A DNA stretch of 64,000 bases from Minisyncoccota bacterium (GTDB lineage Bacteria > Patescibacteriota > Minisyncoccia > Phycocordibacterales > UBA9973): positions 128,048 to 192,047 of the forward strand of contig DALYDY010000001.1 in the NCBI GenBank assembly GCA_031972855.1, given 5' to 3'. Position 1 is the first letter of the stretch, and the number at the start of each line of letters is the position of its first letter. The notes under the pieces were generated by a model. The model was not told where the DNA came from and ran no database searches. It saw only the letters and a program-made list of their open reading frames with translations. This document shows positions 9,038 to 49,122 of the stretch, piece after piece. The position numbers and the translations under genes are program-made.

Positions 9038-10726
9038 ATGAAAACAAATTATATGAAAAAAATAACAAAATACGCACTTGGGTTTACAGCCCTTGTTTTG
9101 AGTGTGTTTGTATCACAAACAGCACACGCTCAATATTCTGGTAATTGGAACAACGATCCAAAAGATCCTCCAACTATCATGATAATGAATTCAACTAGAA
9201 ATCCTGGATGTAATTTTGGACAATGTGGATCAACTTCTGTAACAGCTAATACAGGTGATCTTATTTCTGTTCAAATTTATTATCACAATACAGGTACAAA
9301 TCCTGAACAAGCAATTCTAAATCTATCACCAAGAACAAGTGGAAGTGTAAACTCACTCTCATTTATTGGTGGAGTTAATGGAAAAAATAGTTCAGCTACA
9401 CTTACTATAAACGGAGGTGCACAACCTGTTGAATATATAGGTGTTGGACGTTTTTATCAAAATCAATCATCAGTAGGACAAACAGGAGATTATTCTCAAG
9501 TATTCTCTGGTGGATTTAATGCTGGAAATATTGCTGCGGGATGGTCTTCACAAGGAAACCTCGTATTAGATTTCCGTGTAGGTGTTGGTTCAACTAATAC
9601 AGGTTTTGCTTGTTCTGACGGTATTGATAATGATGGAGATGGACGTATTGATATGAATGATATTGGTTGTTCTGGTTCTACAGATAATGATGAATATAAT
9701 ATTAATTCAAACTCTATTTATGGATGTACTGATAGATCTGCTACAAACTACAATCCAAACGCAACAATAAATTCTGGATGTATATACACTCAAACAGACA
9801 ATACTCTTAATGTTTCAACAACTGTTGCAACAAACGTAGGACAAAACAGTGCTCGTTTGAATGGAATTGTGTTTTCAAATAATTATCAAGCAACATCTTG
9901 GTTTGAATGGGGTTCTACAAGAAGTCTAGGATATACAACATCTCAAACAAATCTTGGAACATCAACAAGTTATCCAACATCTAGTTCTATATCAGGTCTT
10001 AGACCAAACACTGTTTATTTTTATCGTGCCGTTGCACAAAATCAATACGGTGTAGTTCGTGGTTCTATTGTTCAATTCAAAACTCTTGATGACGGAAGTT
10101 CTGTTGTTGTTGATACACAAACAAGATATATTGTTCGCAATCAAATTGTTAGAACAAATCTATCTGCCGGACTAACAACACCATCACTATTTGGTCTTCG
10201 TATTGAAAATCGTTATACAAATGCTTGTATTGGAGATAATCTAGAATATAGTATTCGTTTTGATAACGTAAGCACAACAACAGTTACTGATACAGTGCTT
10301 CAAGTTATTATTCCTTCAGAAATGACTTTTGTTAAATCTTCACAAGGAACTTTTGATGCTGATACAAATACTCTTACAGTAAATGTTGGAACAGTAAATC
10401 CAGGTGAATCAAAAGAAGTTTTTGTAAATGTAAAAATGAATACATCTGCAAAAGACCGTGACTTCGTACTTACAGCTCGTTTGATGTATACAAATCCACA
10501 AACAGGAGCACAAGAAGATGTCCTCGGATATTCTTTCCTAAAAGGATTGGTATGTAATAACAATCTTCTAGGAGCATCAGCTTTCTTCTCAGGAGCATTC
10601 TTCCCAACAACATTGTTTGGATGGTTACTCTTAATACTTCTTATTCTATTGCTTGTATTTATTTCTCGTAATTTATACGAAAAAACTTATAAGAAAAAGA
10701 AAACAGAAATCAATATAACTCAATAA
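9038..10726 (+). CDS. Predicted cell-surface protein (signal peptide, Cys-containing Asp-rich Ca-binding-like segment, C-terminal TM anchor with basic tail)
   Basis: N-terminal signal-like region (ALVLSVFVSQTAHA); CSDGIDNDGDGRIDMNDIGCSGSTDNDE; C-terminal hydrophobic helix LLLILLILLLVFI followed by SRNLYEKTYKKKK. Confidence 0.5.
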   Translation: MKTNYMKKITKYALGFTALVLSVFVSQTAHAQYSGNWNNDPKDPPTIMIMNSTRNPGCNFGQCGSTSVTANTGDLISVQIYYHNTGTNPEQAILNLSPRTSGSVNSLSFIGGVNGKNSSATLTINGGAQPVEYIGVGRFYQNQSSVGQTGDYSQVFSGGFNAGNIAAGWSSQGNLVLDFRVGVGSTNTGFACSDGIDNDGDGRIDMNDIGCSGSTDNDEYNINSNSIYGCTDRSATNYNPNATINSGCIYTQTDNTLNVSTTVATNVGQNSARLNGIVFSNNYQATSWFEWGSTRSLGYTTSQTNLGTSTSYPTSSSISGLRPNTVYFYRAVAQNQYGVVRGSIVQFKTLDDGSSVVVDTQTRYIVRNQIVRTNLSAGLTTPSLFGLRIENRYTNACIGDNLEYSIRFDNVSTTTVTDTVLQVIIPSEMTFVKSSQGTFDADTNTLTVNVGTVNPGESKEVFVNVKMNTSAKDRDFVLTARLMYTNPQTGAQEDVLGYSFLKGLVCNNNLLGASAFFSGAFFPTTLFGWLLLILLILLLVFISRNLYEKTYKKKKTEINITQ

Positions 10727-35616: not shown

Positions 35617-35689
35617 GGGGATTATGGTGTAACGGTTAACACTGAGGTTTGTGGAACCTTCAATCTGGGTTCGATTCCCAGTAATCCCC
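35617..35689 (+). tRNA. tRNA-His (anticodon GTG) with encoded G(-1); no encoded CCA
   Basis: G(-1)-GGGATTA-TG-GTGT-AACGGTTA-ACAC-T-GAGGT-TTGTGGA-ACCTT-CAATC-TGGG-TTCGATT-CCCA-GTAATCCC-C. Confidence 0.85.
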
Positions 35690-37336
35690 CTTTTCAGGAG
35701 TTAATATAACGGAGTCAGGTAATTTGGTCTGGCGTATAGATACGTTCCGACCCCGACCCCTGACAGGACTTAATATAACTGAGTCATCCGTTGTAATAAT
35801 TCCTTTCTCAAAAGCTCGATCCTTTACCGGATCGGGCTTTTGCGTTGTGTTCCAAATAAGCGCGCCTGTTGCCTCAAGTCCTAACACGATTGGAGATTTA
35901 ATTGCCTCGACGATTAGCTTGTCCTCGGCTTTGAATTGGTCCCAGAAAAGCCCAAGGTACAGGCGTTTCAAATCGTCCGGTGCTTTCTGGTAGGTCTTGC
36001 CGATGTTCCGCATAAGGGCTAGTACGTCTTGGATTACATCAATCTTCAGGTTCTTTGTTTGGTCCAGTTTGTGCATTTCGTCCTCGACTCCATCAATCTG
36101 TTCTCGGTAGCGGACCTTTATTTTGGTGAACGCCGCATCGTCGATGATTCCGTTGATCAGCTTTTCTTCGGCGATCTCAAGTTTGCGCTCGAAGTTTATT
36201 TTTGATGTCATGAACTGTTTCTTTTGATTCCCGACATCGGATTTCTTTTCTTCGTAGATGTCCCGCATTTTCTTCACCACTTTATCTATGAAGTCGTCAG
36301 AGAATTGCAGTCCTTTGAATTTCTCTATGATCTGATTTTCTAAATCAAACACCTCGACGTATTTGTCGGTACATTTCTTTTGGTCATTGGACCGATTGCA
36401 GTGGTAGTACGCTTTCTTTTTCAAAGGGTGATATTCGGCCGTGTATCGTTGGCCGCACTTGTTACAAAATACAAATCCGCGCAGTAGAAAGTTATGCTTG
36501 TGCCGTCTGCATGCGTAGCGATTATTTTCCAGCATGACTCTCTGGCATTTATCAAAAAGCTCTTTGGTGATGATTGCCTCATGCTTGCCGATATCATTCA
36601 TCCCTCGCCACTCCATTCCGCCATAATAAAAAGGGCACTTGATTGTGCGAAACATTTTACTCATCGCCACTCGTTTACCCACGGTGCTGACCAGTCCTTT
36701 CTTGTAGAGCAGATCCCGAATCTCAATCAGGGAATAATCGCCGGTGCTATAGAGTTTGAATCCCTCGGCGATGAGTGGTGCGCGGATCGGGTCTGTCGTG
36801 ATGATTCTTTTCTTTTCGTCGTCGGGAGTTCCCGAGTTGAAGTATCCCATCGGTGCTTTCGTCGGCCACCATCCGTCCTTGTATTTTTGCTCCATGCTCT
36901 TGAGCGTCTTTCGGGAAGTGATCTGCGATTGCAGTTGGTTCACGCCGGCAATTATCAAGTCCATGAAGTTGCCCTCGGGCGTGTCCTCGAGTCCCGGTTG
37001 CGATACCGATATCAGTTCGACGTTGTGCTTTCGCAGGAGTGCCTTGATCGTAAGGTGGTCCCCGGCATTACGGGCGAGTCGGTCCGTATCTTGGACGAAG
37101 ATCGCGCCGATGCTCTTATCCTCTTGGATACGGATCAACATGTCTTGAAGTCCGGGGCGATTCATGTTGGTCGCGCTCTTGCCCGGGTCCTTGTAGACAC
37201 CGTCGTCGGCAAGCTTGAAGGTTTTCATATCTTCAATGCCGCGCTCGCAGAGGCGCAGTTGGGTTTTTAATGAGTGCCGTTCGTCACCGGCTTGTTCATC
37301 GGTGGAAACTCGGCAGTAAATGAGAGCTTTATTCAT
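35660..37336 (-). CDS. Large serine recombinase (resolvase/invertase catalytic domain + recombinase domain + zinc ribbon)
   Basis: N-terminal YCRVSTDEQ catalytic-Ser motif, resolvase-domain conserved Arg/Asp residues, central recombinase domain, C-terminal Cys cluster (CNKCGQ...HCNRS). Start taken at MNKALIYCRVS. The open frame continues antisense through the tRNA-His 3' end before the first stop. Confidence 0.8.
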   Translation of the reverse strand: MNKALIYCRVSTDEQAGDERHSLKTQLRLCERGIEDMKTFKLADDGVYKDPGKSATNMNRPGLQDMLIRIQEDKSIGAIFVQDTDRLARNAGDHLTIKALLRKHNVELISVSQPGLEDTPEGNFMDLIIAGVNQLQSQITSRKTLKSMEQKYKDGWWPTKAPMGYFNSGTPDDEKKRIITTDPIRAPLIAEGFKLYSTGDYSLIEIRDLLYKKGLVSTVGKRVAMSKMFRTIKCPFYYGGMEWRGMNDIGKHEAIITKELFDKCQRVMLENNRYACRRHKHNFLLRGFVFCNKCGQRYTAEYHPLKKKAYYHCNRSNDQKKCTDKYVEVFDLENQIIEKFKGLQFSDDFIDKVVKKMRDIYEEKKSDVGNQKKQFMTSKINFERKLEIAEEKLINGIIDDAAFTKIKVRYREQIDGVEDEMHKLDQTKNLKIDVIQDVLALMRNIGKTYQKAPDDLKRLYLGLFWDQFKAEDKLIVEAIKSPIVLGLEATGALIWNTTQKPDPVKDRAFEKGIITTDDSVILSPVRGRGRNVSIRQTKLPDSVILTPEKGDYWESNPD

Positions 37337-37509
37337 GGTAATTGTAATAGTTAGCTGATAAGGGCAATGCGACGACATTATGCTAGGAACACGGGATATA
37401 GCAATGGTGGGTTTTGTTTTTGTGTCGTATATGTGGTCATTTTTATCGTTTTTCACTACTGGCTTAACTGACGTTATTTTGAAATGGTCCTTATTTCATG
37501 GGCTATTAA

Positions 37510-37869
37510 CTACAGAAATCCGTCATGTCTGTTCCGAGGGTCGATCCAGTCGCCCGGGTACTCTCTGATGATTTCATTGAGTTTCTGTCGCAACTGCGCC
37601 ATTTCAACAGAAAACTGTTCAAGCCGTTCTTTCCATCGGTCAAACTGCGGTCGCTTTTCACGGAGTACTGTCTGTTCTTTCGTAAGGCGTTCGAATGCTT
37701 TCCACATCAGCTTTGTTGCATATGCTCGGTTGAGGTTGTATCCCTTTTCTTTGAGGTAATAGCAAAGCGCACGAGCGCTCATGCTCGTATCTTTGGATAC
37801 GATGTCATAGATGATATCGATATGGTGGTTTGTTTGTTCTGATGAGTATTTCATGGATTGTGAAAACAA
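37510..37869 (-). CDS. Hypothetical small HTH/coiled-coil protein (possible transposase-OrfA-like or recombination accessory factor)
   Basis: 119 aa, GC-rich codon usage like the island; basic helical N-terminus. Weak similarity only. Confidence 0.3.
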   Translation of the reverse strand: MFSQSMKYSSEQTNHHIDIIYDIVSKDTSMSARALCYYLKEKGYNLNRAYATKLMWKAFERLTKEQTVLREKRPQFDRWKERLEQFSVEMAQLRQKLNEIIREYPGDWIDPRNRHDGFL

Positions 37870-38030
37870 AATTCATTCTGGCTTATTCGCTGTTTGGTGG
37901 CTTGTGATGGATTGTCATTCGGTGTTTTCTTAGGGTTTTCAGTATTTTTTGGCACGCGCGTTAGGTTTCTTTTTTTATTTCCTTTATTTTCTTTCTTACC
38001 CCCTCGAAAGTGTTCGGTATGCTGAACACC

Positions 38031-38504
38031 TTATAGCGGTTTAACCCTGAATTTATCAGTAAGATTCTTGATTCCGTCTTGTAAATTTGAACGGTCTTGC
38101 TGTTCATTCTGTCGAATGTTCTGTTCTGTAGGTTGAATCCCTTGTTCGATACACCGAAATCCCTGTTCAGCTTGCCGAACCGAGGCTTGATAAATCCAGA
38201 AGTAATTCACACCTGTTTTATTTTTCGGGAGCTTAATAAGGAACCCTTTCTCGGCGAGTGACTTTCTGGTTTCACTGATCTTGCCACGGGACCAGTTTGG
38301 CAAGCAGTGATCTTTGATGTCTTGAAGTGATAAGTCCTCGATGATACCAAACCGCTCCTCGTCGCGTTTATCCCATCGTGCATGGGTCACATACATGTCG
38401 AAAAGCCGATACTCCTGATCGGTCATCACTTTTTTGTATTCGATAGCCATATATCTATATAGCTTTAGGTAGCCTACGTGTTTTTTCTTCATGTTCATTT
38501 TCAT
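38031..38504 (-). CDS. Hypothetical protein (157 aa)
   Basis: ORF with island-like composition. Confidence 0.35.
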   Translation of the reverse strand: MKMNMKKKHVGYLKLYRYMAIEYKKVMTDQEYRLFDMYVTHARWDKRDEERFGIIEDLSLQDIKDHCLPNWSRGKISETRKSLAEKGFLIKLPKNKTGVNYFWIYQASVRQAEQGFRCIEQGIQPTEQNIRQNEQQDRSNLQDGIKNLTDKFRVKPL

Positions 38505-38618
38505 GCTCGATTTGCATCAAGAGGATTTGGGCGAGACGTTCGACAAAGAAATCCAAGTCTTTTGGATTCAAGGGGACCTGTACAGGGACCGGTTTGTTGT
38601 CGAGCGTCTGGTCCATAA

Positions 38619-38876
38619 TTAATTTACCTCGTAGAGGCGGGTCTTTAACGCTTTGATCTGGTCAAAGTAAGCGCGCGGTTCGACCGACAGCTGACGCTTT
38701 TGGAATTCTGAAACAATGTCTTCAAGTTCCGGAGTCCGGGCGAATATGAATTGCGCTCGCCTCGGTACACTCTTGTCGACATCTTCGAGTGGCACGAACA
38801 GCGAAATTGCCGCCGCGCACGCGAGGTCTGAAGTTTGGTACATAGATTTTTGATTAATAATAATTTTCATAGTCAT
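38619..38876 (-). CDS. Hypothetical protein (85 aa)
   Basis: ORF only. Confidence 0.3.
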   Translation of the reverse strand: MTMKIIINQKSMYQTSDLACAAAISLFVPLEDVDKSVPRRAQFIFARTPELEDIVSEFQKRQLSVEPRAYFDQIKALKTRLYEVN

Positions 38877-39354
38877 TTTTCAAAGAGCTAGCTGAAAACA
38901 AAAAAGAGGACTTGCAACGCAAATCCAATATTGATGGATATGCATCACAAGTCCTCCGGGGTATTCGGCCAGACTTCGAACATTAGTTGTGAAAAGACTA
39001 CTCTCAAATCGTAGCGCGGACCGCTAATGAAGCGCAACTCCTGACAGTGTGGACAAAGTAGTATGCCTAGTGAACCACTTAAAGATTTTATCTTTACGTC
39101 ATAACAACTTTTTGGAATCGAATTGGCCGTATGAGGAGAGCAATAGAACACTTGTTTTTAAAAAGGCAAACAGTGGAGAGATTCCCTGTAGGCTTAGTCT
39201 GGTATCTATAACACCGTGGGGATAACCGATAAAGGTTGTAGATATGCGACAAGTAAAATCTAAAATAACCCTTATTTAAAAGGGCTATTTTTGGAATAGG
39301 GGTCTCTTGTAAATAACTATTTGCAAGTAAAGGCACTTTCTTGTATACTTATGT

Positions 39355-40821
39355 TTGCAAGTGAAAAAGCCTATGAAAACAGAGCAAAAACAAAAAATCT
39401 TTGAATTTATACAGGACCAGATCGCAAATGCTGACTTTAGAATCAAGGCATACGTATTTGATGAGTCCGGGAAGAAGCGTCTCGGGCGTAACTGCTTTGT
39501 GAAGCTTGATATGCATGTACAGAACTTCCTACAAGGAAAATCTCCTATTCGATGGATAACCATGTATGGCTTACGTGGTGCCGGCAAAACTACCTTACTT
39601 GCTCAGTTGTATGAGCAGACGAAAATTGAGAGCAAAAGAAAATTATTTTTATCAGTGGATCAGGCGGTTGGAATTTTTGGAGTTAGTCTCAAAGATATTC
39701 TTGATGTCTACGAAGAATCGCTTGGTACATCCTTCGAACGTCTCACGGAACCAGTCTTCCTTTTTCTTGATGAGGTTCAATACGATGAGAAGTGGGCTCT
39801 ATTACTCAAAACGATTTATGATCGCAGTAGCAAGGTTTTTATTATTGCGACAGGTTCGTCTGCGCTTTCGCTACAAGCGAGTCCTGATGTTGCACGACGC
39901 GCAATTTTTGAAAAACTTTTCCCGATGAGCTTCACGGAATATATAAAGATTAAAAATCAAAAGACAGAAATTCGGGGACTTGCCAAGGAACTACGCGAGG
40001 CGATTTTTAATTCCAAAGATGCTAAAGAGGTTCACACACGTCTTAAGGGTTTGGAAGTAAAAGCTCGGCAGTATTGGTTAGATATAGAACGGAAAGAGAT
40101 TGATTCATATATGCAATATGGGACACTGCCTTTTATGATCGCTCTGAATAATGAGGCAATGGTCTACGATCAAATCAAGAAGACCCTTGAGCGTGTTATC
40201 AGTATTGATATTCCACATATAAATCAATTTTCAGCAGAGACTATATCCAAGATACCAATGGTGCTTTATGCACTTGCAGAAACGGACCAGTTGAGCTTGA
40301 GCAGTCTCGCTGATAAAGGCGAGCTTGATATTAGCCGTCCAGTGCTTACAGCCGTTCTCGAAACTCTGGAAAGAACAGAAACGATTTGGCGTATTTACCC
40401 TCATGGGTCGCATGTAACACAAACAACTCGTCAGCCATCAAAATATCTTTTTACGAGCCCAGCGTTTCGGTCCATGTATTTTAATTTTATAGGAAACACA
40501 AGGACCCACGATACCTATAAAGGGAAAATACTTGAAGATACTGTCGGTCTTTATCTTAATCGCATATTCTCGGGCAAGCCCGACACTTCCGTAACGTACG
40601 ACAGTGCCGCCGGCGGAGCTGATTTCATTATTCGTCAAAGTAAAGACATGATTGTATTGGAAGTCGGGTACGGCGATAAATCGTTTAGGCAAGTTGTAAC
40701 TACAATGGCAAAGGTCGGAGTAAATGCTCGATACGGCATAGTTGTGTCGCAAAGTCCGCTTGCCTTAGATGAAGAGAAAAATGCAGTAAGTATCCCACTC
40801 TCTTATTTTTTGTTGATGTAA
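39355..40821 (+). CDS. AAA+ superfamily ATPase (COG1373/DUF4143-type)
   Basis: Walker A GLRGAGKTTLLAQL, Walker B FLDEVQY, C-terminal DUF4143-like region; 488 aa. Confidence 0.65.
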   Translation: MQVKKPMKTEQKQKIFEFIQDQIANADFRIKAYVFDESGKKRLGRNCFVKLDMHVQNFLQGKSPIRWITMYGLRGAGKTTLLAQLYEQTKIESKRKLFLSVDQAVGIFGVSLKDILDVYEESLGTSFERLTEPVFLFLDEVQYDEKWALLLKTIYDRSSKVFIIATGSSALSLQASPDVARRAIFEKLFPMSFTEYIKIKNQKTEIRGLAKELREAIFNSKDAKEVHTRLKGLEVKARQYWLDIERKEIDSYMQYGTLPFMIALNNEAMVYDQIKKTLERVISIDIPHINQFSAETISKIPMVLYALAETDQLSLSSLADKGELDISRPVLTAVLETLERTETIWRIYPHGSHVTQTTRQPSKYLFTSPAFRSMYFNFIGNTRTHDTYKGKILEDTVGLYLNRIFSGKPDTSVTYDSAAGGADFIIRQSKDMIVLEVGYGDKSFRQVVTTMAKVGVNARYGIVVSQSPLALDEEKNAVSIPLSYFLLM

Positions 40822-40845
40822 AGATCCAGAATAATTAAAATTACT

Positions 40846-41034
40846 ATGAAAATCGACAACCAAGAAAACAAAAAAGAACTCTACATCAAATGCGTAAAAT
40901 GCGGTGATGAGATTTTTTGGAATACGCACAAACAACTAACTTACTGCACATGTAAGGCTATTTATGTTGATGGCTGCGAGGGTTATATCCGGGTCGGCGG
41001 AAATAAAGAGGATCACGTTGAGATTCAAAAATAG
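40846..41034 (+). CDS. Small zinc-ribbon protein
   Basis: CVKCGDE...CTCKAIYVDGCEG Cys pattern; 62 aa. Confidence 0.4.
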   Translation: MKIDNQENKKELYIKCVKCGDEIFWNTHKQLTYCTCKAIYVDGCEGYIRVGGNKEDHVEIQK

Positions 41035-41039
41035 ATCAC

Positions 41040-41372
41040 ATGAATAATCAAAAGATAGAAATTATAAGACAACCAGTATTTAAACCTTTTGAAAGTAGAA
41101 TGGTTCTTTGCGCTGATCCTGTTATCAAAATAAGCGATAAAGAAAAAATAGCCCGCTTTGCTATTTCTATGGTTGATACATCTGTTTTACAGTTGGGAGA
41201 TAATTTTGAAAAATTAAACAAAATGATTAGAGATACTCTCCAGGACGGTGTTCAAGAAAATTTTGAAATAGATGGTGTTTACTACTTTGAATACACAGGT
41301 AGTCATTTCCAACAATTAGATGGGAAACCAGATTGGGCTAATGATTTCTATAGACAAGGTATAAATATTTAA
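41040..41372 (+). CDS. Hypothetical protein (110 aa)
   Basis: ORF only; 6-bp intergenic gaps on both sides (operonic). Confidence 0.35.
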   Translation: MNNQKIEIIRQPVFKPFESRMVLCADPVIKISDKEKIARFAISMVDTSVLQLGDNFEKLNKMIRDTLQDGVQENFEIDGVYYFEYTGSHFQQLDGKPDWANDFYRQGINI

Positions 41373-41377
41373 AATTT

Positions 41378-42847
41378 ATGGGATGGATAATTTTCATTGG
41401 AATAGTTATTTACTTCATTTACAGCTCTTCAAAAAGCACAGGTACTTCAGCGTCTCCATCTAAGCCTCACTACTCGAAGCCTTATAGCAAGCCCGCAGTT
41501 GTTGTAAATAAAAAACTAAATGAGGATCAGTTACTTGTTGAAAAAATAACGCTTAGCGAAGAGCAGCAGACCCTGTTCGATAAAATCGAACATAGCACCG
41601 ATCACTTCTTCATTACAGGTAAGGCGGGGACCGGTAAGTCAGTGTTGTTGCAGTATTTGAAATTCAAATCAAAGAAACGCTTGGTTGTTGGTGCTTTTAC
41701 CGGAGTCGCTGCACTGAACGTAGGAGGCCAGACCTTGAATTCGTTATTCGAATTGCCGACGGGTTTCATAGATTTAAGTCGCTTAACAGTAAGCGGTCGA
41801 GTTTCCACTTTGATGAGGCACGTTGATACTGTCGTCATCGATGAGATATCTATGGTCCGGGCTGATATGATGGGTGCCATTGATGTAATTCTTCGACAGG
41901 CGCGCAAGAATGACGTTCCATTCGGCGGAGTTCAAATGGTCATGTTTGGGGACCTTTACCAATTACCTCCCGTTGTGGCCGACGAAGCACTGCATCAGTA
42001 TTTTGCCCATAATCATGGTGGTCCTTATTTTTTTAATGCTGATGTCTGGCAGAGAGCAACACTTCACACTTTCGAACTGAGTCATATTTTCCGTCAGCAG
42101 GATGATGAGGAATTCAAAGCTATTCTTAATTCAGTACGAAAAAATCAAATAGAAGATACTGTCCTTTCATCCTTGAATCAACGGCACGTTGACCAGGTAC
42201 CCACTGACGGAGTCGTTACGCTTGCAACTCGCAACGCTGTGGTTGATCGAATAAACAATGATCGCCTGGCTCGACTTGGCGGTGAGTTGTATGAATATCG
42301 CGCAGATGTTTCTGGGAATTTAGAACGATCTGCGTTTCCAGCTGAAGAATTCTTACGACTCAAAAAGGGTGCTCAGGTGATGCTCCTCAAAAATGATCCA
42401 GAGAAGCGATGGGTAAATGGTACGGTCGGTGTGGTTGAGTCGTTGTCATCGTCTGAAATAAAGGTCCGCATTAATGGCGAAATTATTTATTCGATCCCGC
42501 GAGCAACCTGGACCAAAATTCGCTATTTCTACGATACTGAAACAAGAAAAATCGAAGAGGAAGTTTTGAGCTCATTTACTCAATTCCCACTTCGCTTGGC
42601 ATGGGCGTTCACGATTCACAAATCCCAAGGTAAAACATACAATGCTGTCGTCGTAAATATGGAGGGAGGTGCTTTTGCTCACGGACAAACGTATGTTGCG
42701 CTCAGTCGTTGCACTTCTCTTAACGGACTATATCTGACCCAGCCTATCGAAAGAGATGATATAAAAGTTGATCCGGTCGTAGTCAGCTTTATGGAACAAA
42801 TTACATTAGAGACTATTAATCCTGATGTACAAACACAAATTATATGA
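41378..42847 (+). CDS. PIF1/RecD-family (SF1B) DNA helicase
   Basis: Walker A GKAGTGKSVLL, VVIDEISMV (Walker B), GDLYQLPPV (Pif1 motif III), C-terminal SF1 helicase motifs (AFTIHKSQG...YVALSR); N-terminal TM segment. Confidence 0.8.
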   Translation: MGWIIFIGIVIYFIYSSSKSTGTSASPSKPHYSKPYSKPAVVVNKKLNEDQLLVEKITLSEEQQTLFDKIEHSTDHFFITGKAGTGKSVLLQYLKFKSKKRLVVGAFTGVAALNVGGQTLNSLFELPTGFIDLSRLTVSGRVSTLMRHVDTVVIDEISMVRADMMGAIDVILRQARKNDVPFGGVQMVMFGDLYQLPPVVADEALHQYFAHNHGGPYFFNADVWQRATLHTFELSHIFRQQDDEEFKAILNSVRKNQIEDTVLSSLNQRHVDQVPTDGVVTLATRNAVVDRINNDRLARLGGELYEYRADVSGNLERSAFPAEEFLRLKKGAQVMLLKNDPEKRWVNGTVGVVESLSSSEIKVRINGEIIYSIPRATWTKIRYFYDTETRKIEEEVLSSFTQFPLRLAWAFTIHKSQGKTYNAVVVNMEGGAFAHGQTYVALSRCTSLNGLYLTQPIERDDIKVDPVVVSFMEQITLETINPDVQTQII

Positions 42848-44226
42848 AAAATAACATCTACCCAATTATCGGCATGAGTCCAGGCAATAGCTACTTCAAG
42901 GATGAAGAGATTAAATATCTTCTCAAGACCGCAGTAGACCGCTATGGAAAGGTTGCTGTGATGATTGCTGACATCCCTGCAATCTCGACATATGTCGCAC
43001 TCGGCTATCCTGAAAATCGTGCGCGGCGCGATAAGGCCCTGCCACAAGGAAATCTTTTGAAAAATAGAACTGAGCGGGCCGTCGTCCAACTCGGATACAC
43101 AAAGGATCAGGTAAGGATTATTGATTGGGAAAATGAAATAGAACCGAATGAAAATTACAAAAAGTCGTATAAGTATATTCGGCATCTTTATGAATCAAAC
43201 AAGCAATTTGAACATGATGCCGATGAGACAACTAAGGGTGTCGTCACTGGTTCAAAGAAAGAAATTAAAGATATAGATGTTGCGGTAAAAACTGCGGTCC
43301 ACTACTTGCTTTCAGAATTTGCTTTTCTTGATTTTGCACCCGGATTTTTAGGAGCTGAAAAAATCACCTATATTTATCACAAAAATTGGCCTGTGTATGA
43401 AAACTATATTGCAGGAAAGTATGACGGGAAATCAAAAGACCATGTCGATTTCCTACTCATGGAAAATCCATGGGAGACGTATCGTTCAGTGTGGGGTGAT
43501 GAGGATAATGAGAATGGAAGTTATACATCCGCCCTTGATCGTGTAGAAAAGACAAAGACGCTCCGTGTAGCTTTCACAAACTATCCACCCGCGTTATTTT
43601 ATAATCACGAAACCGATACTTTCTCGGGTATTTTCTATGAGATTATTACTGCAATAGCAGAAAAGCATGGTTGGCAGATTAAGTGGAGCGAAGAGACAGG
43701 ATATGGTGTTGTAATTGATGGATTGGACCATAATCGCTTTGATCTGTTTGGGAGCACTGTTTGGCCGACACCTGAGCGAAAAGAGAAAGCGTCTTTTTCA
43801 AAATCTATGTATACAAGCGAGGCATATCCATGGACGTTTCCAGGATTTGAGTATGAAAAGCTTAAAGATAGTCCTGATCTAAGGGTTGTGGTGAAAGAAA
43901 ACGATATCTCTCATTCGATTGCAATGGCTGATTTTCCAAAAGCACGACTGGTATTTGTACCGCAGCTTTCGGACCCTCAAGAATTGCTGCAATTTGTAGC
44001 TGACGGAAAAGGGGACGTGACGTTTGCAGAAATTAACCTTGTGGAAATTTTTATAAAAGCGAAACAAAAGAAATTGGTACAGGCAACAAGTAGTCCTATT
44101 CGCGTATATGAAAATACTTTTGTTTTCAAAAAAGACGATCCCTCATTAAAAAATCTTATTGATGAAGAAATCGTAGCCATGGTTGCTAGTGGTAAAATGG
44201 AAAAGTTGATAGAAAAATATCTTTAA
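42844..44226 (+). CDS. Two-domain protein: N-terminal cyclodipeptide synthase (CDPS, tRNA-dependent)-like domain fused to C-terminal family-3 solute-binding-protein (SBP_bac_3)-like domain
   Basis: N-terminal ~235 aa align motif-by-motif with YvmC/AlbC-type CDPSs: IIGMSPGNSYFKDEEI vs VGISPFNSRFSEDYI, VAVMIADIPAISTYVALG vs VSVLLAGHEAANLLEALG, AVHYLLSEFAFLDFAPGFLGAEKITYIYH vs [29 protein letters not shown] (catalytic Tyr/Glu positions conserved). C-terminal ~225 aa match amino-acid-binding SBP family 3: LRVAFTNYPPALFY...GIFYEIITAIAEKHGWQIKW...RFDLFGSTVWPTPERKEKASFSKSMY. ATGA start/stop overlap with the helicase gene. Confidence 0.65.
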   Translation: MKNNIYPIIGMSPGNSYFKDEEIKYLLKTAVDRYGKVAVMIADIPAISTYVALGYPENRARRDKALPQGNLLKNRTERAVVQLGYTKDQVRIIDWENEIEPNENYKKSYKYIRHLYESNKQFEHDADETTKGVVTGSKKEIKDIDVAVKTAVHYLLSEFAFLDFAPGFLGAEKITYIYHKNWPVYENYIAGKYDGKSKDHVDFLLMENPWETYRSVWGDEDNENGSYTSALDRVEKTKTLRVAFTNYPPALFYNHETDTFSGIFYEIITAIAEKHGWQIKWSEETGYGVVIDGLDHNRFDLFGSTVWPTPERKEKASFSKSMYTSEAYPWTFPGFEYEKLKDSPDLRVVVKENDISHSIAMADFPKARLVFVPQLSDPQELLQFVADGKGDVTFAEINLVEIFIKAKQKKLVQATSSPIRVYENTFVFKKDDPSLKNLIDEEIVAMVASGKMEKLIEKYL

Positions 44227-44240
44227 CACATAATTAATTC

Positions 44241-44768
44241 ATGACACTACTTATTTTCCAAATTCTCTCAAGCGTTTTTGGTTTTGCAAACAAACTCTTG
44301 CTGTATCTTGGGAAACGAACGGGTTGGATTTTGGGATTTCTGGCGGGAGTATTTTTTGTCGTTTATTTTTTCCTAATCGGATTTACTGTATATGCATTCG
44401 TACAAATAGGATTTAGTCTTTTGATGCTGTATGGATATTTTTCTCATACAGGAATCTCTAAAAATGCAAGAATTTTTGCCACCGTAATTTTATCTTTAAT
44501 CGCTATTATTATTTGCTTTATAACGTTTAACGGCAAACTGACTTTACTTGAAGCAACTTCAGCTTTATTGGCCTCATGGGGCACATACTATCTTGCATCA
44601 AAGAATAATATAAAAGGGTGGGGCATGTACCTTATTGCTCATTTTATCCTTATTTATCTAACCATCATAAAACAACAATATATTTTTGCCTTGTTTCAAG
44701 GGTTGTCAGCAGTCGTTTCGATCTTAGGAATTATTAGATCAGGAGATACTAAAACGAAGGGTTTCTAA
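44241..44768 (+). CDS. Small multi-TM membrane protein (possible PnuC-like transporter; uncertain)
   Basis: 175 aa, 5-6 TM helices, directly downstream of the CDPS-SBP fusion gene. Confidence 0.3.
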   Translation: MTLLIFQILSSVFGFANKLLLYLGKRTGWILGFLAGVFFVVYFFLIGFTVYAFVQIGFSLLMLYGYFSHTGISKNARIFATVILSLIAIIICFITFNGKLTLLEATSALLASWGTYYLASKNNIKGWGMYLIAHFILIYLTIIKQQYIFALFQGLSAVVSILGIIRSGDTKTKGF

Positions 44769-44785: not shown

Positions 44786-44821
44786 AAACCTCATGTTGAA
44801 TTTATACAACATGAGGTTTAA
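44786..44821. terminator. Bidirectional hairpin terminator
   Basis: aaacctcatgttg-aatttataca-acatgaggttt. Confidence 0.7.
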
Positions 44822-44850: not shown

Positions 44851-45423
44851 TCAGTTCATTTGAGCTTTAATACCGAAAACTTCGCCACCATACGCAAACA
44901 CCTGTTCATCTAACACCTTGATCAAGCTGGAAAGTACTTTGTCTTTCTTTTTTGAATGGGCAAAGATGATGTTTTCAACCGAGATGACAATCTCACCTTT
45001 TTTGAGCTTATTGACACTTTTTTCAAAACTGCCATCGCTATAAGGTATAGATTGGGTAATGATAGTATCAGCGGTTGCTTGTTCAATTTTAATTACGCAA
45101 CTGCCACTCATTCCACTCATCCTGCCTTCAATGCTGTAACGGGCATTTACTATGCGGTTGCCTACACTATCTCTTTGATATGCATCAGGGTCTTTCCATT
45201 CAATGTTGGTTCCAACTGTAGGGAAGTATTTTTTCGCAGTATCGACCATTAAGGCAAACACTGAATCCAATACTTCATTTTTAACAATTTTTGCTTCCAC
45301 CTTTGGAACCTCCTTTGCTACGGGGACCGGAGCGAGAGTGTCATTTCTACTTTCTGGCTCATTAGAGCAAGATGTCATACATAAAGCGATAAACGCAATA
45401 GAAAGATTAAGTAACTTTTTCAT
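44851..45423 (-). CDS. Lipoprotein (hypothetical)
   Basis: Signal peptide with lipobox LCMTSC. Confidence 0.5.
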   Translation of the reverse strand: MKKLLNLSIAFIALCMTSCSNEPESRNDTLAPVPVAKEVPKVEAKIVKNEVLDSVFALMVDTAKKYFPTVGTNIEWKDPDAYQRDSVGNRIVNARYSIEGRMSGMSGSCVIKIEQATADTIITQSIPYSDGSFEKSVNKLKKGEIVISVENIIFAHSKKKDKVLSSLIKVLDEQVFAYGGEVFGIKAQMN

Positions 45424-45533
45424 TTGTTATTTGGTTTTGATTGTTTGAAAAGAACGAATTTCACTGTCAACCCACAACGTTTTGTTATGAACTGAATAAT
45501 GAAGGGAGCTACTTTATTCACTCCCTTTGAGGT

Positions 45534-45944
45534 TTAACCTCCATATGAATTTGAAGAAAGTACCGTCAGGTCTTTATCTCCACCACTCAATTCCCAATCT
45601 CTATCCATTCTCCAACAGGATAATGTTACTTCATCCAAACGATGGATTTGAAGTAACTTGATAGCAGGAAAGTGAATCGCAATGTGAGAAAACCTTGATA
45701 CTTCTGCAAGCTCTATTGTTACACCCAGCGTATCAGCATTCTTTTCGATTTTGGTAATCCCTTTATACCAATCCCATACATAGACAACAGGAATGAAATC
45801 AGGGTCACTGGTTTCTACTGTCATATCCATATCGAGATTGAGCTGATTGATGTCAGTAGGGTTGATGTTATATTTTCTAACACCCAAATTTCTACCTAAT
45901 CGTGTAAGTGTTGCTACACCAAGATGGTTCAATGAAGTTTTCAT
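45534..45944 (-). CDS. Hypothetical protein (136 aa)
   Basis: ORF only. Confidence 0.35.
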   Translation of the reverse strand: MKTSLNHLGVATLTRLGRNLGVRKYNINPTDINQLNLDMDMTVETSDPDFIPVVYVWDWYKGITKIEKNADTLGVTIELAEVSRFSHIAIHFPAIKLLQIHRLDEVTLSCWRMDRDWELSGGDKDLTVLSSNSYGG

Positions 45945-46189: not shown

Positions 46190-46828
46190 ATGGCAAAATT
46201 TAATGTCACAGGCGACCAACACTTCGGCACCACAGGACAGGTGCTCGAAATTCAACGCCAAATCCGTCTTAAGGGCGGAAGTCCAATCGATCCCGAGCTC
46301 GTTGCTCTTGCACTTCAGGACATCATCGAAGGTAAGTTCAACCGCAGTAAGAAAGAGAATGCAATTCTCAAACTACTGTCGAAAGGCGAATCCATCATCA
46401 TTGATGCATGTGATGGGACCGAAACATTGGCAACTGCCAAAGAAACATTCAAATCTGGTATAGATGGAGACTTCAAGAACTGGGGTACCAACAAGCCGGG
46501 CGTTTCTACTGAAGACACCGCAGTACAGGTTCACGAAATGGTGAAGGACGCTACCTTTGCACAAATGTTCGGCTCCCTCGGGACCGATCTGGACAAGCTG
46601 TGTCTGACACAAGCCCAGATAAAGAACTTTTGCAAAAAGCATCCCAACTGGTTACGCAAAGACGGATATGCGACTTTCTTCCTGTTCAAGGTTGAAGATC
46701 AATTCTTCGTTGCTTTCGTGTACGTGTACTCTGACGGCTTGAACGTCTTCGTGTTCCGGTTCGGGTACGACTTCGTTTGGTTTGCCGAGTGCTCCCTTCG
46801 TCTGGTGGTTCCGCAACTGACCGCTTAG
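46190..46828 (+). CDS. DGR target (variable) protein; C-terminal variable region encoded by the VR
   Basis: The last ~40 codons coincide with the VR (46700-46820). The VR differs from the TR only at TR adenines, mostly in AAC codons. Confidence 0.8.
46700..46820 (+). repeat. DGR variable repeat (VR), 121 bp
   Basis: 121-bp alignment with the TR at 47131-47251: 19 mismatches, all at positions where the TR has A (AA->TT x5, AA->TG, A->T x5, A->G, A->C x2). Confidence 0.9.
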
Positions 46829-47130
46829 TACCTTGTTCTAATGACGCTTATTTTCTTAATCCCTTTGATTCTTCGGAATTGAAGGGATTTTTTTATTTTT
46901 GTATAATGATCGGGCAGTGGTGCAATATGTCGCGGTTACGGCTGCGGGATCACGATTGCTCAAAATCATCATCGAGAATTTTGCCGGCTACGGCTTTCAA
47001 AAGAGTGAAGATTTTTTTGAAATAAAAAAACTTTTCAGTTGGTGCGGTGTGCTTGCGGACTTCTAGGTCCCGAATAAAATACAGCACGGTCCCTGATGGA
47101 AACATGCTTGGATCGGCGGTGGTATAGACG

Positions 47131-47251
47131 GCACAGCGCACAATTCTTCGTTGCTAACGTGAACGTGAACTCTGACGGCTTGAACGTCAACGTGAACCGG
47201 TTCGAGAACGACAACGTTTGGAATGCCGAGAACTCCCATCGTCTGGTGGTT
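47131..47251 (+). repeat. DGR template repeat (TR), 121 bp
   Basis: Non-coding copy of the VR containing AAC-rich sequence (aacgtgaacgtgaac...); sits between the target gene and the RT. Confidence 0.9.
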
Positions 47252-47281
47252 CCGAAAATGATAGTTTTCTCCTCTCTGATT

Positions 47282-47626
47282 TTATTGTCCGAGAGGAGTT
47301 TTCTTTTCAAGCCCCTTTCTCCAACCGCCGAGCATTTTGCCTATCTCATCCAACTGTTCGGAGAGTATTGCATATTTGTCGTTCGGCAGGCATTTGTTCT
47401 CCCACGCCAACTGCAAAAAGAATTTCACCCCGTCGAGCTTTGATATTGAAATGGTGATACGGTTGATCTTCTGATCTCCCGACAGATAGAAGGAAACAAA
47501 AATGTTTTCCAACAGTTCTAAAAAATAGCAGTCTATCTTGCCACCGAGATTGTGGCGGTAGGTCTTGGGAAAATCGGCCAGTAACTTAAACCAGAGTGAG
47601 TACGATGCTTTTGCCTTTATGAGCAC
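47282..47626 (-). CDS. Accessory variability determinant (Avd)-like four-helix-bundle protein, encoded antisense to the TR and RT
   Basis: 114 aa; LWFKLLADFPKTYRHNLGGKIDCYFLELLENI... and C-terminal EIGKMLGGWRKGLEKK resemble the Avd family (compare the bAvd C-terminus VGRILGSWIARVNRKG). Confidence 0.6.
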   Translation of the reverse strand: MLIKAKASYSLWFKLLADFPKTYRHNLGGKIDCYFLELLENIFVSFYLSGDQKINRITISISKLDGVKFFLQLAWENKCLPNDKYAILSEQLDEIGKMLGGWRKGLEKKTPLGQ

Positions 47627-47680
47627 TGAAGGTGCTCGGGGGGGGTAGATTAATTGACATAGTAATTTTAATTAATATTT

Positions 47681-48697
47681 ATGAAAAAATTCGGTCGCTC
47701 TTACCAGAATATCATAACAGTCGAAAATTTGCTCCGCGCGTGGCAGGAATTTTTGTCTGGGAAAAAGAACCGCATCGATGTCGCCGCGTTCCAGAATCGG
47801 CTCATGAATAATATCTGCGATCTGCATCAGGAGCTTGCCGACAAGACCTACCGGCATGGTGCGTATCACGCATTCAACATTTCCGATCCGAAGCCGAGGA
47901 ACATTCACAAGGCTACGGTCCGGGACCGTCTGTTGCACCACTTACTTCACGCCGAAATGTATCCGCACTTCGATAAGAAATTCATTCACGACTCGTATTC
48001 CTGTCGCATCGGCAAAGGTACGCACAAAGCGATGGACCGCTTTCAGGATTTTGGCCGTATCGTTTCCAAAAACGACACTCGCGTATGTTGGGTTCTGAAA
48101 TGCGACATCAGAAAATTCTTTGCAAACATAGACCACGTGATTTTGAAAGATATCATTGCACGGCACATTGAAGATCGCGACTTGTTGGACTTGCTCGGGC
48201 ATATCATCGATAGTTTTTCGACACAGGGCAGGACGGATGTCGGTCTGCCACTCGGCAATCTCACCAGTCAGCTCTTGGTCAATGTCTACATGAACGAGTT
48301 CGATCATTTCATGAAGCGGACGCTCAAAGTTACCCATTACATTCGCTACGCTGATGACTTTGCCATTCTCTCCGAGGATCGGGACTATCTGGCGGACCTT
48401 ATTCCACAAATAGCCGAGTTTCTGGGGGATAGGCTGAAATTGTCCTTGCATCCCGACAAAGTGTTTGTGAAGACGCTTGGCTCGGGCGTTGATTTCTTGG
48501 GGTGGGTTCATTTCCCGCACCATCGGGTTTTGCGTACGGCCACGAAACGGCGGATGTTTGCCAATCCGGGCATTTACGCGGCCGACGAAGCGGTGGTGAA
48601 CTCATATCGCGGGTTGGTTTCTCATGGCAACGGGTGGAAGTTGGTTCGCACGATCGAGGCGGTTTCGGCGAAGGTGTCGTCGTCCGAAATCGGCTGA
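47681..48697 (+). CDS. DGR-type reverse transcriptase
   Basis: RT motifs including YADD (IRYADDFAILS) and the DGR-typical LPLGNLTSQ motif (SQ rather than the group II SP); 338 aa; immediately downstream of TR/avd. Confidence 0.85.
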   Translation: MKKFGRSYQNIITVENLLRAWQEFLSGKKNRIDVAAFQNRLMNNICDLHQELADKTYRHGAYHAFNISDPKPRNIHKATVRDRLLHHLLHAEMYPHFDKKFIHDSYSCRIGKGTHKAMDRFQDFGRIVSKNDTRVCWVLKCDIRKFFANIDHVILKDIIARHIEDRDLLDLLGHIIDSFSTQGRTDVGLPLGNLTSQLLVNVYMNEFDHFMKRTLKVTHYIRYADDFAILSEDRDYLADLIPQIAEFLGDRLKLSLHPDKVFVKTLGSGVDFLGWVHFPHHRVLRTATKRRMFANPGIYAADEAVVNSYRGLVSHGNGWKLVRTIEAVSAKVSSSEIG

Positions 48698-48888
48698 ACG
48701 TGGCCGTTGAAATTCTGGAGGGTGACAAACCCTCGGATGCCGTTTGAAGAGCTCACACAGGGCAAAATACGCGCGAATTATGCCAACTGTAATTCTTTCT
48801 TCTTGTCGGAAATCAGCCTTAGTTTCTCTCGTAAAATTTGCATATACCCCTCGTCGAGAAGTATAGTTAGAAGGTCATTCTGACTCTG

Positions 48889-48932
48889 CCCCAAAAGAGA
48901 AAAAGCCCATAAGGGCTTTTTCTCTTTTGGGG
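48889..48932. terminator. Long perfect palindrome (hairpin terminator) at the right end of the GC-rich island
   Basis: ccccaaaagagaaaaagccc-ataa-gggctttttctcttttgggg. Confidence 0.6.
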
Positions 48933-48974
48933 GATTAAGCAAGTGAACTACTTCACTTGCGTCTGGGAATCGAA
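48929..48974 (-). repeat. tRNA-His 3'-end-like fragment (inverted relative to tRNA-His) interrupted by a 25-nt hairpin insertion
   Basis: Plus strand gggggatta + agcaagtgaactacttcacttgcgt + ctgggaatcgaa. The flanks equal the reverse complement of tRNA-His 3' end GGGGGATTACTGGGAATCGAA (21/21). The insertion is a homologue of the 25-nt insertion at 25169-25193. Confidence 0.7.
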
Positions 48975-49122
48975 AAGCTTTTGCTTATTTATGAAAATCT
49001 TTGATTTGAATAAATGCAAAAGGTGTACTGCTCCTGTAAGGAGAGATTCCTATTAATCTAAAAATTATTTATATTGACTTATAAAAAAATAAATAGTATA
49101 TTACGATAAATAATTTTAATTT

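Follow-up and report, generated by a model that had tools for sequence, protein, structure and literature searches.

A six-gene array at a Patescibacteria tRNA-His island is probably an accessory arm of separately mobile modules

Do six tightly packed genes for an AAA+ ATPase, a zinc-ribbon protein, a small protein, a Pif1 helicase, a cyclodipeptide synthase (CDPS) fused to a solute-binding domain (SBP) and a membrane protein make up one conflict system, or have they merely come to lie together? The question arose from a first-pass annotation of a 64,000-nt stretch of DNA (the window, by which we mean the whole of the stretch analysed), in which six co-directional plus-strand ORFs occupy positions 39355-44768 (Table 1). 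Our answer is that they are most probably the accessory arm that runs rightward in an integrative element of ~13 kb, built from separately mobile modules and not one machine. The host would be a low-GC Patescibacteria genome (Paceibacteria/Nomurabacteria-like), with the element sitting at tRNA-His, where a large serine recombinase would have mobilised it.

Table 1. The island and its six-gene array, in window coordinates
Feature	Positions	Strand	Basis
tRNA-His(GUG), integration site or left border of island	35618..35690	+	ARAGORN and Rfam
Large serine recombinase (island integrase)	35660..37333	-	Resolvase, Recombinase, Zn_ribbon_recom domains
Leftward conserved backbone, four genes (o119, o157, o53, DUF5659)	37510..38876	-	Pfam and PHROGs
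o119	37510-37869	-	
o157	38031-38504	-	Weak PHROGs match to replication-initiation O-like
o53	38455-38616	-	
DUF5659 gene	38619-38876	-	
Divergent intergenic region, promoter-like site 39320-39349 inside	38877..39372	.	Consensus match only
Gene 1, AAA_14 ATPase with DUF4143	39373..40821 (ORF listed 39355-40821)	+	Pfam, PADLOC
Gene 2, DUF7695 zinc-ribbon protein, 62 aa	40846..41034	+	Pfam 2.2e-10
Gene 3, 110-aa protein, very small family, motif YYFxFTGSHFxxLDEKPxW	41040..41372	+	
Gene 4, Pif1/Dda-like SF1B helicase, N-terminal hydrophobic anchor and low-complexity linker	41378..42847	+	Pfam, PHROG
Gene 5, NYH-type CDPS fused to amino-acid-type solute-binding domain, no signal peptide	42844..44226	+	
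Gene 6, small polytopic membrane protein, weakly PnuC/NMN-transporter-like	44241..44768	+	Pfam
13-bp hairpin, likely bidirectional terminator, between convergent gene 6 and o190	44786..44819	.	
o190 and o136, two unannotated genes	44851..45944	-	No Pfam match
Diversity-generating retroelement (DGR)	46190..48697	+	Repeat D1, bAvd and RVT_1 domains
DGR target gene VR	46700-46820		
DGR TR	47141-47261		
DGR bAvd	47282-47626	-	
DGR RT	47681-48697		
Right end of island: 94-nt stretch (48686-48779) shared with L070, and perfect 20-bp hairpin (48889-48932)	48686..48932	.	

The coordinates of the six ORFs stood, as did every domain call of the first-pass annotation, with profile matches for genes 1, 2, 4, 5 and 6 and no family for the 110-aa gene 3. 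Its spacing of 25/6/6/-4/15 was off by one, because it had been computed as start minus end; the true untranslated gaps from gene 1 to gene 6 are 24, 5, 5, -4 and 14 nt. The array is bracketed by a promoter-like site and by the hairpin right after gene 6, and transcription of the six genes together probably starts in the divergent promoter region and stops at this hairpin. Judged on the DNA alone, we call a single transcript for all six plausible, a modest word chosen because promoter-like matches in the region are rarer than in shuffles (16 observed versus 21.9). With gaps this short, and with genes 4 and 5 overlapping by 4 nt, joint expression of the array today is likely, and its genes may interact functionally to some extent in this host. 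GC3 across the array is mixed, at 0.21-0.44 versus 0.15-0.25 in the host.

The array lies on a GC-rich island of ~35.7-48.95 kb that adjoins tRNA-His and the recombinase. GC is 0.40-0.49 on the island versus ~0.30 in the host, and GC3 is 0.21-0.64 versus 0.15-0.25; beyond ~48.95 kb GC is back to host level. An integrase with Resolvase, Recombinase and Zn_ribbon_recom domains at the border, beside its tRNA-His target, places the island among large-serine-recombinase elements. The 3' ends of the recombinase ORF and tRNA-His overlap; the ORF is listed from a GTG at 37456, the likelier start being MNKALIY at 37333. To the right of the array come o190 and o136, seen elsewhere only on an identical contig (L001), and then the DGR, in which all 19 of 19 VR/TR differences fall at TR adenines. 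A search for a displaced tRNA fragment or repeat marking att sites found none, and because the att sites are unmapped, the right border rests on the GC drop and a single 94-nt match to L070. Capsid, packaging and conjugation genes were not seen on the island.

Five sister islands were recovered (L002/L068, L069, L070, L071 and L073), and these, like the gene contexts below, were read from fragmentary metagenome contigs. The recombinase (homologues in L002, L069-L071 and L073), o157, o53 and DUF5659 are common to all five, and three of them (L002, L069 and L073) start at tRNA-His. The arm that carries our six genes holds other cargo in these relatives: AbiEi/AbiEii, a type II MTase with an SNF2/ZorD-like helicase, Fic (PDC-S04/SoFic), PD-T7-4 (1.6e-85) and an REase-like gene. 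The full six-gene array was not found outside contigs 100% identical to the window.

Gene 1 would fill the slot that AbiE or Fic/PD-T7-4/REase-like genes hold in sister islands. We favour ATG 39373 as its more likely start, because the resulting 482 aa equals the length of homologues and agrees with the gene call on the identical contig. Pfam finds AAA_14 (1.9e-22) and, slightly below its cutoff (27.7 versus 28.1 bits), DUF4143, a domain that has been placed in the PD-(D/E)XK superfamily (PMC3424549). PADLOC, a check that the first-pass annotation had proposed, matched this gene to six PDC-S01 models (best 3.2e-27), with residues 69-485 aligned to model positions 31-405 of 412, nearly full length. 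PDC-S01 is an ATPase fused to PD-(D/E)XK, a defence candidate awaiting validation (PMC12988326), and gene 1 has that AAA+ plus PD-(D/E)XK architecture in a single gene. Its homologues (79-89% identity) stand alone in three unrelated contexts, away from mobile elements. We regard it as a candidate stand-alone defence gene of PDC-S01 type, whose product would recognise and cleave invading nucleic acid in an ATP-dependent manner.

The sole conserved pair of the array is genes 2 and 3. Their order is swapped in sister islands (79-87% nt identity), and their partners elsewhere are AbiEi/AbiEii or an MTase plus SNF2. Gene 2 scores 40.5 bits as DUF7695, versus a gathering cutoff of 25, and is 84-85% identical in nucleotides to L069, L070 and L073, where it comes after the gene 3 homologue. 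No match to gene 3 was found in Pfam, PADLOC, NCBIfam or PHROG; we found six homologues, and a set of 1.84 billion proteins contained 15 representatives. Its AF2 model (pLDDT 85) gave no significant fold match. All gene 3 homologues with readable context lie inside the same island family, the 2.2-kb contig L072 being too short to tell. Sequence comparison places genes 2 and 3 in the backbone of this family.

Gene 5 matches CDPS (2.2e-28), TIGR04539 (7.6e-35) and SBP_bac_3 (1.7e-19). In alignment its S12, N15, Y154, E158, Y178 and H179 correspond to AlbC S37, N40, Y178, E182, Y202 and H203, and it thus carries the residues of the NYH subfamily (Ser37, Tyr178, Glu182 and Tyr202 plus Asn40 and His203, AlbC numbering); all six are invariant across 33 homologues. 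The CDPS domain, to which YvmC is the closest solved structure, is predicted to be catalytically intact and autonomous. The C-terminal domain has a confident type II periplasmic-binding fold (Foldseek TM 0.83 to AncCDT-1 and other amino-acid binders). We rejected an exported ABC solute-binding protein as its identity, since it is C-terminal to a cytoplasmic enzyme; a hydrophobic N-terminus was looked for and none was found. No ABC permease/ATPase or tailoring enzyme recurs beside CDPS-SBP genes, each neighbour family being present in at most 4 of 51 loci. The fusion, strongly conserved, comes from lineages that are ultra-small, episymbiotic or predatory, and it often lies directly after tRNA genes; C-terminal "ABC-transporter domain" CDPS fusions have received passing mention only (PMC5816076). 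It closes the defence-cargo arm in the window island and in one sister island, and on L068 it is immediately preceded by TrmB, Fic, PD-T7-4 and the REase-like gene.

In island-free relatives (L064, L012 and L042) tRNA-His is followed by the CDPS gene, and CDPS-SBP and the genes downstream could be resident chromosomal genes, with an island that inserted upstream at tRNA-His and ends with the Pif1 gene. The order tRNA-Val, tRNA-Leu, tRNA-His, CDPS is indeed syntenic in these three and in island-bearing L002, and in L064 18 nt of the tRNA-His 3' end are repeated in the interval that separates the tRNA from CDPS-SBP, which puts CDPS-SBP outside the att footprint there. We nevertheless consider residence unlikely. 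Gene 5 is 91% identical in amino acids to a Nomurabacteria copy (CP064958; 84% in nucleotides, with homology limited to the coding sequence), whereas syntenic host flank proteins reach 39-70%, and its GC3 is 0.36 versus 0.15-0.25 in the host. No spacer or displaced tRNA fragment lies between genes 4 and 5, and composition stays foreign to ~48.95 kb, where the 94 nt match the L070 island end. Two related elements, L077 and L096, likewise carry Pif1 together with a DGR, and this brackets gene 5 within the element. An ordinary chromosomal gene past tRNA-His in relatives, gene 5 was here probably acquired horizontally together with island DNA. Whether CDPS-SBP was resident or imported, genes 4 and 5 would be adjacent by insertion history, not function.

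Gene 4 belongs with the Pif1-like SF1B helicases, having a PIF1 (4.2e-32) and AAA_30 core, a 2B domain (Pif1_2B, 2.1e-06), the Walker A motif GKAGTGKS and a PHROG match to Dda-like helicase (8e-75). Its N-terminal anchor is kept in most homologues at 52-76% identity. Homologues sit in variable mobile-element contexts: among 80 metagenome loci they lie near serine recombinases in seven and near a DGR RT in two. One homologue comes after a TraG/coupling-like ATPase. Such contexts, the Dda-like match, the weak O-like initiator match of o157 and the backbone status of genes 2 and 3 would all suit a replication/transfer module of the element formed by genes 1-4 (AAA+ loader or initiator, zinc ribbon, small protein and Pif1), leaving genes 5 and 6 as metabolic cargo and nothing for defence. 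That is quite unlikely, for the backbone persists in sister islands that have neither gene 1 nor gene 4, so the element's life cycle needs neither of them, and gene 1 has its PD-(D/E)XK domain and PDC-S01 match and occurs alone off elements. The notion of plasmid or phage replication genes only, which the first-pass annotation had listed against its own proposal, was not borne out either.

Gene 6 scores just above cutoff as an NMN_transporter (1.1e-07; 32.5 versus 27.3 bits), is only 175 aa long with ~4 hydrophobic stretches detected, and has no NCBIfam match; no homologue of it was found adjoining any other CDPS locus. For genes 2, 3, 4 and 6 we infer the following roles. Genes 2 and 3 may have a part in the element's own functions, such as regulation or recombination directionality. 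Gene 4, a membrane-anchored helicase recurring on elements that bear serine recombinases and DGRs, would act in replication or processing of element DNA, and gene 6 would be a PnuC-like membrane protein, rare and not linked to the other five genes in any conserved way. If the array is, as we think probable, an arm of separately mobile modules, these would be a PDC-S01-type candidate, a backbone pair, an element-associated Pif1, an acquired CDPS-SBP and a PnuC-like protein.

Components of a multi-gene system should recur together in divergent genomes, and these do not. None of 62 genome loci with CDPS(-SBP) has any other array gene adjacent, a Pif1 homologue being near in just two, 5-9 kb off, with unrelated housekeeping genes between in L058; genes 1, 2, 3, 5 and 6 were likewise missing near the Pif1 homologues (43-78% identity) of all 80 metagenome loci. 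The first-pass annotation was right about an operon-like array on a mobile element (co-directional, gaps of 24 nt or less, at tRNA-His) and about conflict or defence cargo, as the PDC-S01 match and the AbiE, Fic, PD-T7-4 and REase-like genes of sister arms attest. Its idea of one system with this composition was not supported, and the co-occurrence of CDPS-SBP with Pif1 and AAA+ partners, a check that it had suggested, was not found: homologues elsewhere are scattered and never co-localised as six, the very outcome it had named as refuting.

There is a slim chance that CDPS-SBP, and not the six-gene array, is the true novelty: an enzyme that consumes charged tRNA under amino-acid gating or makes a dipeptide signal, recruited by mobile elements for host-symbiont or phage conflict, in which case its 4-nt coupling to the membrane-anchored Pif1 would be functional. 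A co-adapted conflict system comprising all six genes, or at a minimum Pif1, CDPS-SBP and the PnuC-like gene, in which a nucleic-acid sensor/helicase controls a tRNA-dependent effector and a membrane protein, is highly improbable: the tight co-directional packing with its overlap, the location within a defence-cargo arm and the last place of CDPS-SBP in that arm in two islands are in its favour, but it is already largely refuted because co-occurrence is absent (62 CDPS loci, 80 Pif1 loci, three gene 1 contexts), no CDPS-SBP neighbour family exceeds 4 of 51 loci, the array is confined to contigs identical to the window, and genes 2, 3, 5 and 6 have no PADLOC match.

Reading the array as an arm of separate modules removes a false lead, since the mix of ATPase, helicase, tRNA-dependent enzyme and membrane protein would reflect cargo accretion and not a new multi-protein system. 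It yields instead a Patescibacteria island family that targets tRNA-His by a serine recombinase and has an exchangeable defence arm (with a DGR in the window copy), a membrane-anchored Pif1 helicase subfamily linked to such elements, and a widespread, uncharacterised CDPS-SBP fusion enzyme in reduced-genome bacteria. Defence-bearing islands in Patescibacteria have already been reported (PMC12455944), and this family adds to the evidence that minimal genomes gain defence genes via islands.

How do these parts compare with known systems? Gene 1 resembles PDC-S01, a PADLOC single-gene candidate (COG1373), in its AAA_14 plus DUF4143 architecture and its stand-alone close homologues, differing in a DUF4143 score just short of the Pfam cutoff. 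Gene 4 shares with Pif1, phage Dda and RecD2-type SF1B helicases its PIF1, AAA_30 and Pif1_2B domains, Walker A motif and Dda-like match, but its subfamily keeps the N-terminal anchor and an S/P/K/Y-rich linker, and it has no relaxase or nuclease domain. Like the NYH CDPSs AlbC, YvmC and Rv2275, gene 5 has the Pfam and TIGRFAM matches, the catalytic Ser/Tyr/Glu/Tyr and the N and H signature; unlike them, it carries a C-terminal SBP_bac_3 domain and has no conserved tailoring-enzyme neighbour, and CDPS-SBP has a wide distribution across Patescibacteria, Obscuribacterales, Bdellovibrionota and some archaea, and not across Actinobacteria/Firmicutes. P4-like satellites, the hotspots of SXT ICEs and Patescibacteria genomic islands that bear R-M systems are examples of elements with variable anti-phage cargo. 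The island shares with genomic islands and phage satellites that have anti-phage hotspots a site-specific recombinase beside a tRNA gene, a backbone that is conserved and an arm whose contents change; in this family the arm holds AbiE, Fic/SoFic-like, PD-T7-4, REase-like, MTase plus SNF2 and PDC-S01-like genes. It differs in having a large serine recombinase, not a tyrosine integrase, in its uncharacterised backbone (o157, o53, DUF5659, DUF7695 and the 110-aa family), and in carrying a DGR and a biosynthetic-type CDPS gene as well.

Six plus-strand ORFs lie exactly where the first-pass annotation had drawn them, with 24, 5, 5, -4 and 14 nt between them, and family scans bore out all of its domain calls. 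The first gene probably starts at the ATG at 39373, judging from homologue lengths and the gene call on an identical contig. There is a promoter-like site immediately 5' of the array and a 13-bp hairpin 3' of gene 6. Matches in a promoter scan of the array region did not rise above chance expectation, however, so plausible is as far as we would take co-transcription of the six genes. PADLOC returned no matches for genes 2, 3, 5 and 6, and a scan of PHROGs gave no informative hit to gene 1, gene 3 or gene 6.

Features of the island (window positions)
Feature	Position	Strand	Domains or identity
tRNA-His	35618-35690		left start of the block
Gene 1	39355/39373-40821	+	AAA_14 (1.9e-22) + DUF4143
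Gene 2	40846-41034	+	DUF7695 zinc ribbon
Gene 3	41040-41372	+	no family match
Gene 4	41378-42847	+	PIF1 (4.2e-32) + 2B domain
Gene 5	42844-44226	+	CDPS (TIGR04539, 7.6e-35) + SBP_bac_3 (1.7e-19)
Gene 6	44241-44768	+	NMN_transporter, weak (32.5 bits vs cutoff 27.3)
DGR, complete	46190-48697
DGR target gene VR	46700-46820
DGR TR	47141-47261
DGR bAvd		-
Conserved right-end stretch (94 nt)	48686-48779

The idea that these genes form an undescribed six-gene system is not supported by where else they occur: their homologues are scattered, an outcome that the first-pass annotation itself had named as refuting it. The full array turned up on only three contigs, each 100% identical to the window. A scan for loci of gene 5, CDPS-SBP (an NYH-type cyclodipeptide synthase fused to a C-terminal solute-binding domain), took one genome per species and returned 62 loci, some with just one of the two domains, CDPS or binding. 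They come from Patescibacteria, Obscuribacterales, Bdellovibrionota, Proteobacteria and some archaea. At none of the 62 does the CDPS gene adjoin homologues of genes 1-4 or 6. Pif1 homologues occur near CDPS at two loci, 5-9 kb off; the one at locus L058, 5 kb from a stand-alone CDPS with Bro-N, methyltransferase, SLOG and Nramp genes intervening, we judged a coincidence. When neighbours within 5 kb were clustered across 51 CDPS loci, no family appeared in more than four, and CDPS-SBP therefore looks like an enzyme without a conserved partner. For the helicase, the other five genes are absent from all 80 metagenome loci that carry a Pif1 homologue (43-78% identity); 7 of these loci have a serine recombinase and 2 a reverse transcriptase (RT) of a diversity-generating retroelement (DGR), and the neighbours sampled are methylases, an AAA_21 ATPase, a ClpB-like ATPase and a TraG-like ATPase. 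Homologues of gene 1 number more than 900, chiefly in Patescibacteria, and those at 79-89% identity stand alone in three different contexts. Genes 1 and 2 were considered as a conserved pair and rejected, because the 49-aa ORF that follows the gene 1 homologue at locus L154 is not DUF7695. Gene 6 appears to encode a PnuC-like membrane protein, short and rare, that nothing conserved ties to the other five.

What the array sits in is an island. A block of GC 0.40-0.49 runs from about 35.7 to 48.95 kb in a genome of about 0.30 GC, and GC3 across it is 0.21-0.64 vs 0.15-0.25 in host genes. On the left, the gene for a large serine recombinase overlaps the tRNA-His 3' end with its own 3' end (35660-35690), so the last part of the tRNA gene seems to come from the island. 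Neither an att repeat nor a displaced 3' fragment of tRNA-His was found in the window or in the sister island L002 (a weak resemblance near 48940-48975 was considered and judged unconvincing); serine recombinases do not require a long repeat. Right of the recombinase, four small genes read leftward: o119, o157 (a weak match to an O-like initiator), o53 and DUF5659. Two unannotated minus-strand genes lie right of the array and beyond them, on the same island, a complete DGR, in which 19 of 19 VR/TR differences sit at TR adenines. The block's right end carries a conserved 94-nt stretch and a perfect hairpin. This stretch is 80% identical to positions 11484-11575 of L070, near the end of that sister island, which has no RT there; it is non-coding except for 12 nt at its start, where the RT gene ends, and RNA folding showed nothing unusual (z = -0.4). 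Synteny with the complete Candidatus Nomurabacteria genome CP064958, seen both in the host genes on the flanks and in the order of the tRNAs (Arg, Val, Leu, His), makes the host a Patescibacteria relative. Scans of IMG/VR, run with gene 1 and with a CDPS-SBP alignment, found no relatives, which leaves a phage origin without support.

The island belongs to a family of elements. Gene 3, from a very rare protein family, has six close homologues, with 15 representatives among 1.84 billion proteins, and all those with readable context lie on elements that share the recombinase, o157, o53 and DUF5659 backbone; two of these elements, L069 and L073, are located at tRNA-His. These elements run AbiEi, AbiEii, gene 3, DUF7695, then an N6/N4 methylase, a protein of 462 aa and an SNF2/ZorD-like helicase. 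Their copies of genes 2 and 3 share 79-87% nucleotide identity with the window copies and stand in reversed order, as if whole genes had been shuffled as cassettes. (Window 40833-41358 aligns with L070 6031-6590, the two genes being 85-87% identical to the L069/L070 island with their order swapped.) A motif, AATAATTAAAATTACT-ATG, lies upstream of gene 2, of its L070 homologue and of the L070 462-aa gene, and also occurs inverted between bAvd and RT (47653-47674). Genes 2 and 3 are missing from the sister island L002/L068, another one at tRNA-His, which carries TrmB, Fic (PDC-S04/SoFic-like), PD-T7-4 (1.6e-85) and an REase-like gene; its own CDPS-SBP comes 5 nt after the last of these. The rightward arm is thus an exchangeable cargo region in which known or candidate defence genes abound. 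To that extent the first-pass notion of a conflict region on a mobile element holds; the part that made the six genes a single system is not supported.

Gene 1 fills the first slot of the window's arm. Its architecture is accompanied by a match (3.2e-27) to PDC-S01, a PADLOC single-gene defence candidate described as an ATPase fused to a PD-(D/E)XK domain, very common and with defence activity still unvalidated (PMC3424549; PMC12988326). It may act as an ATP-driven nuclease on foreign nucleic acid. Genes 2 and 3, by their context, are part of the island backbone. The gene 3 family has an invariant motif, YYF..TGSHF...P.W, and its confident predicted model (pLDDT 85) found no fold match in PDB or BFVD; a part for the two genes in regulating the element itself, or in recombination directionality, is a guess at most. 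Gene 4 has a Pif1/Dda-like helicase core (PHROG, 8e-75) behind an N terminus (41378-41520) made of a hydrophobic helix, MGWIIFIGIVIYFIY, and an S/P/K/Y-rich low-complexity linker. Helix and linker are kept in most homologues at 52-76% identity (L074-L096), and we propose a membrane-tethered SF1B helicase subfamily, whose members live on variable mobile elements, often near serine recombinases and sometimes DGRs. Gene 4 would replicate or process element DNA at the membrane.

Gene 5 belongs to a large, well-conserved fusion family (at least 249 proteins; mean column identity 64% in 33 sampled). All six CDPS signature residues are present. Prediction gave a confident two-domain model (pLDDT 87.8), whose C-terminal part fits amino-acid-binding proteins on superposition (TM 0.83). 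In an alignment, the conserved Arg312 and an acidic residue at 396 fall where solute binders grip the amino-acid backbone. There is no export signal in gene 5 and no transporter partner at its loci; we infer a cytoplasmic role in amino-acid sensing or substrate holding. In other Patescibacteria and archaea the CDPS domain occurs alone (about 205-240 aa; L041-L052), apparently split from the SBP part at L038 and L039, and L053 and L056 hold four to six SBP-only paralogues in tandem. Our literature searches turned up nothing on the CDPS solute-binding fusion, or on CDPS in CPR, save a passing mention in 2018 of NYH CDPS fusions to 'ABC-transporter domains' (PMC5816076).

How did this enzyme come to lie behind a helicase? 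In island-free relatives the CDPS gene sits just downstream of tRNA-His, at 215 nt in L064 (the CP064958 copy), 327 nt in L042 and 1.85 kb in L012, so the adjacency is older than the islands that target this tRNA. In L064 the tRNA-His 3' end recurs as an exact 18-nt repeat (9769-9786 and 9931-9948), 145 nt past the tRNA and 52 nt short of CDPS-SBP, and this looks like the att footprint of an earlier, lost element; L042 has degenerate copies. CDPS-SBP could be a resident gene with the island inserted upstream. We think this unlikely. The foreign composition extends to about 48.95 kb, at the 94-nt match to the L070 end, and Pif1 and DGR are found together on related elements, all of which argues that gene 5 came with the island. 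The window gene appears foreign to its host (GC3 0.36). It matches the L064 copy at 91% in protein and 84% in DNA, homology ending at the limits of the coding sequence, and the syntenic flank proteins, ribosomal protein L19 included, match at 39-70%. Gene 5 would have entered with island DNA, most likely from a donor where the island adjoined it. Under either origin, genes 4 and 5 are neighbours by insertion history, not shared function. CDPS or CDPS-SBP lies directly 3' of tRNA genes (His, Gly, Ser, Leu) at no fewer than six loci (L064, L042, L012, L015, L011, L046); an enzyme that depends on tRNA may be co-transcribed with tRNAs there, or the gene may have arrived time and again where elements integrate at tRNAs.

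What stays most interesting is the CDPS-SBP family of enzymes, together with the Pif1 subfamily that carries a membrane anchor and the family of islands. The array itself belongs to a familiar type of integrative element, one that targets a tRNA gene and has an arm of variable defence or accessory content.
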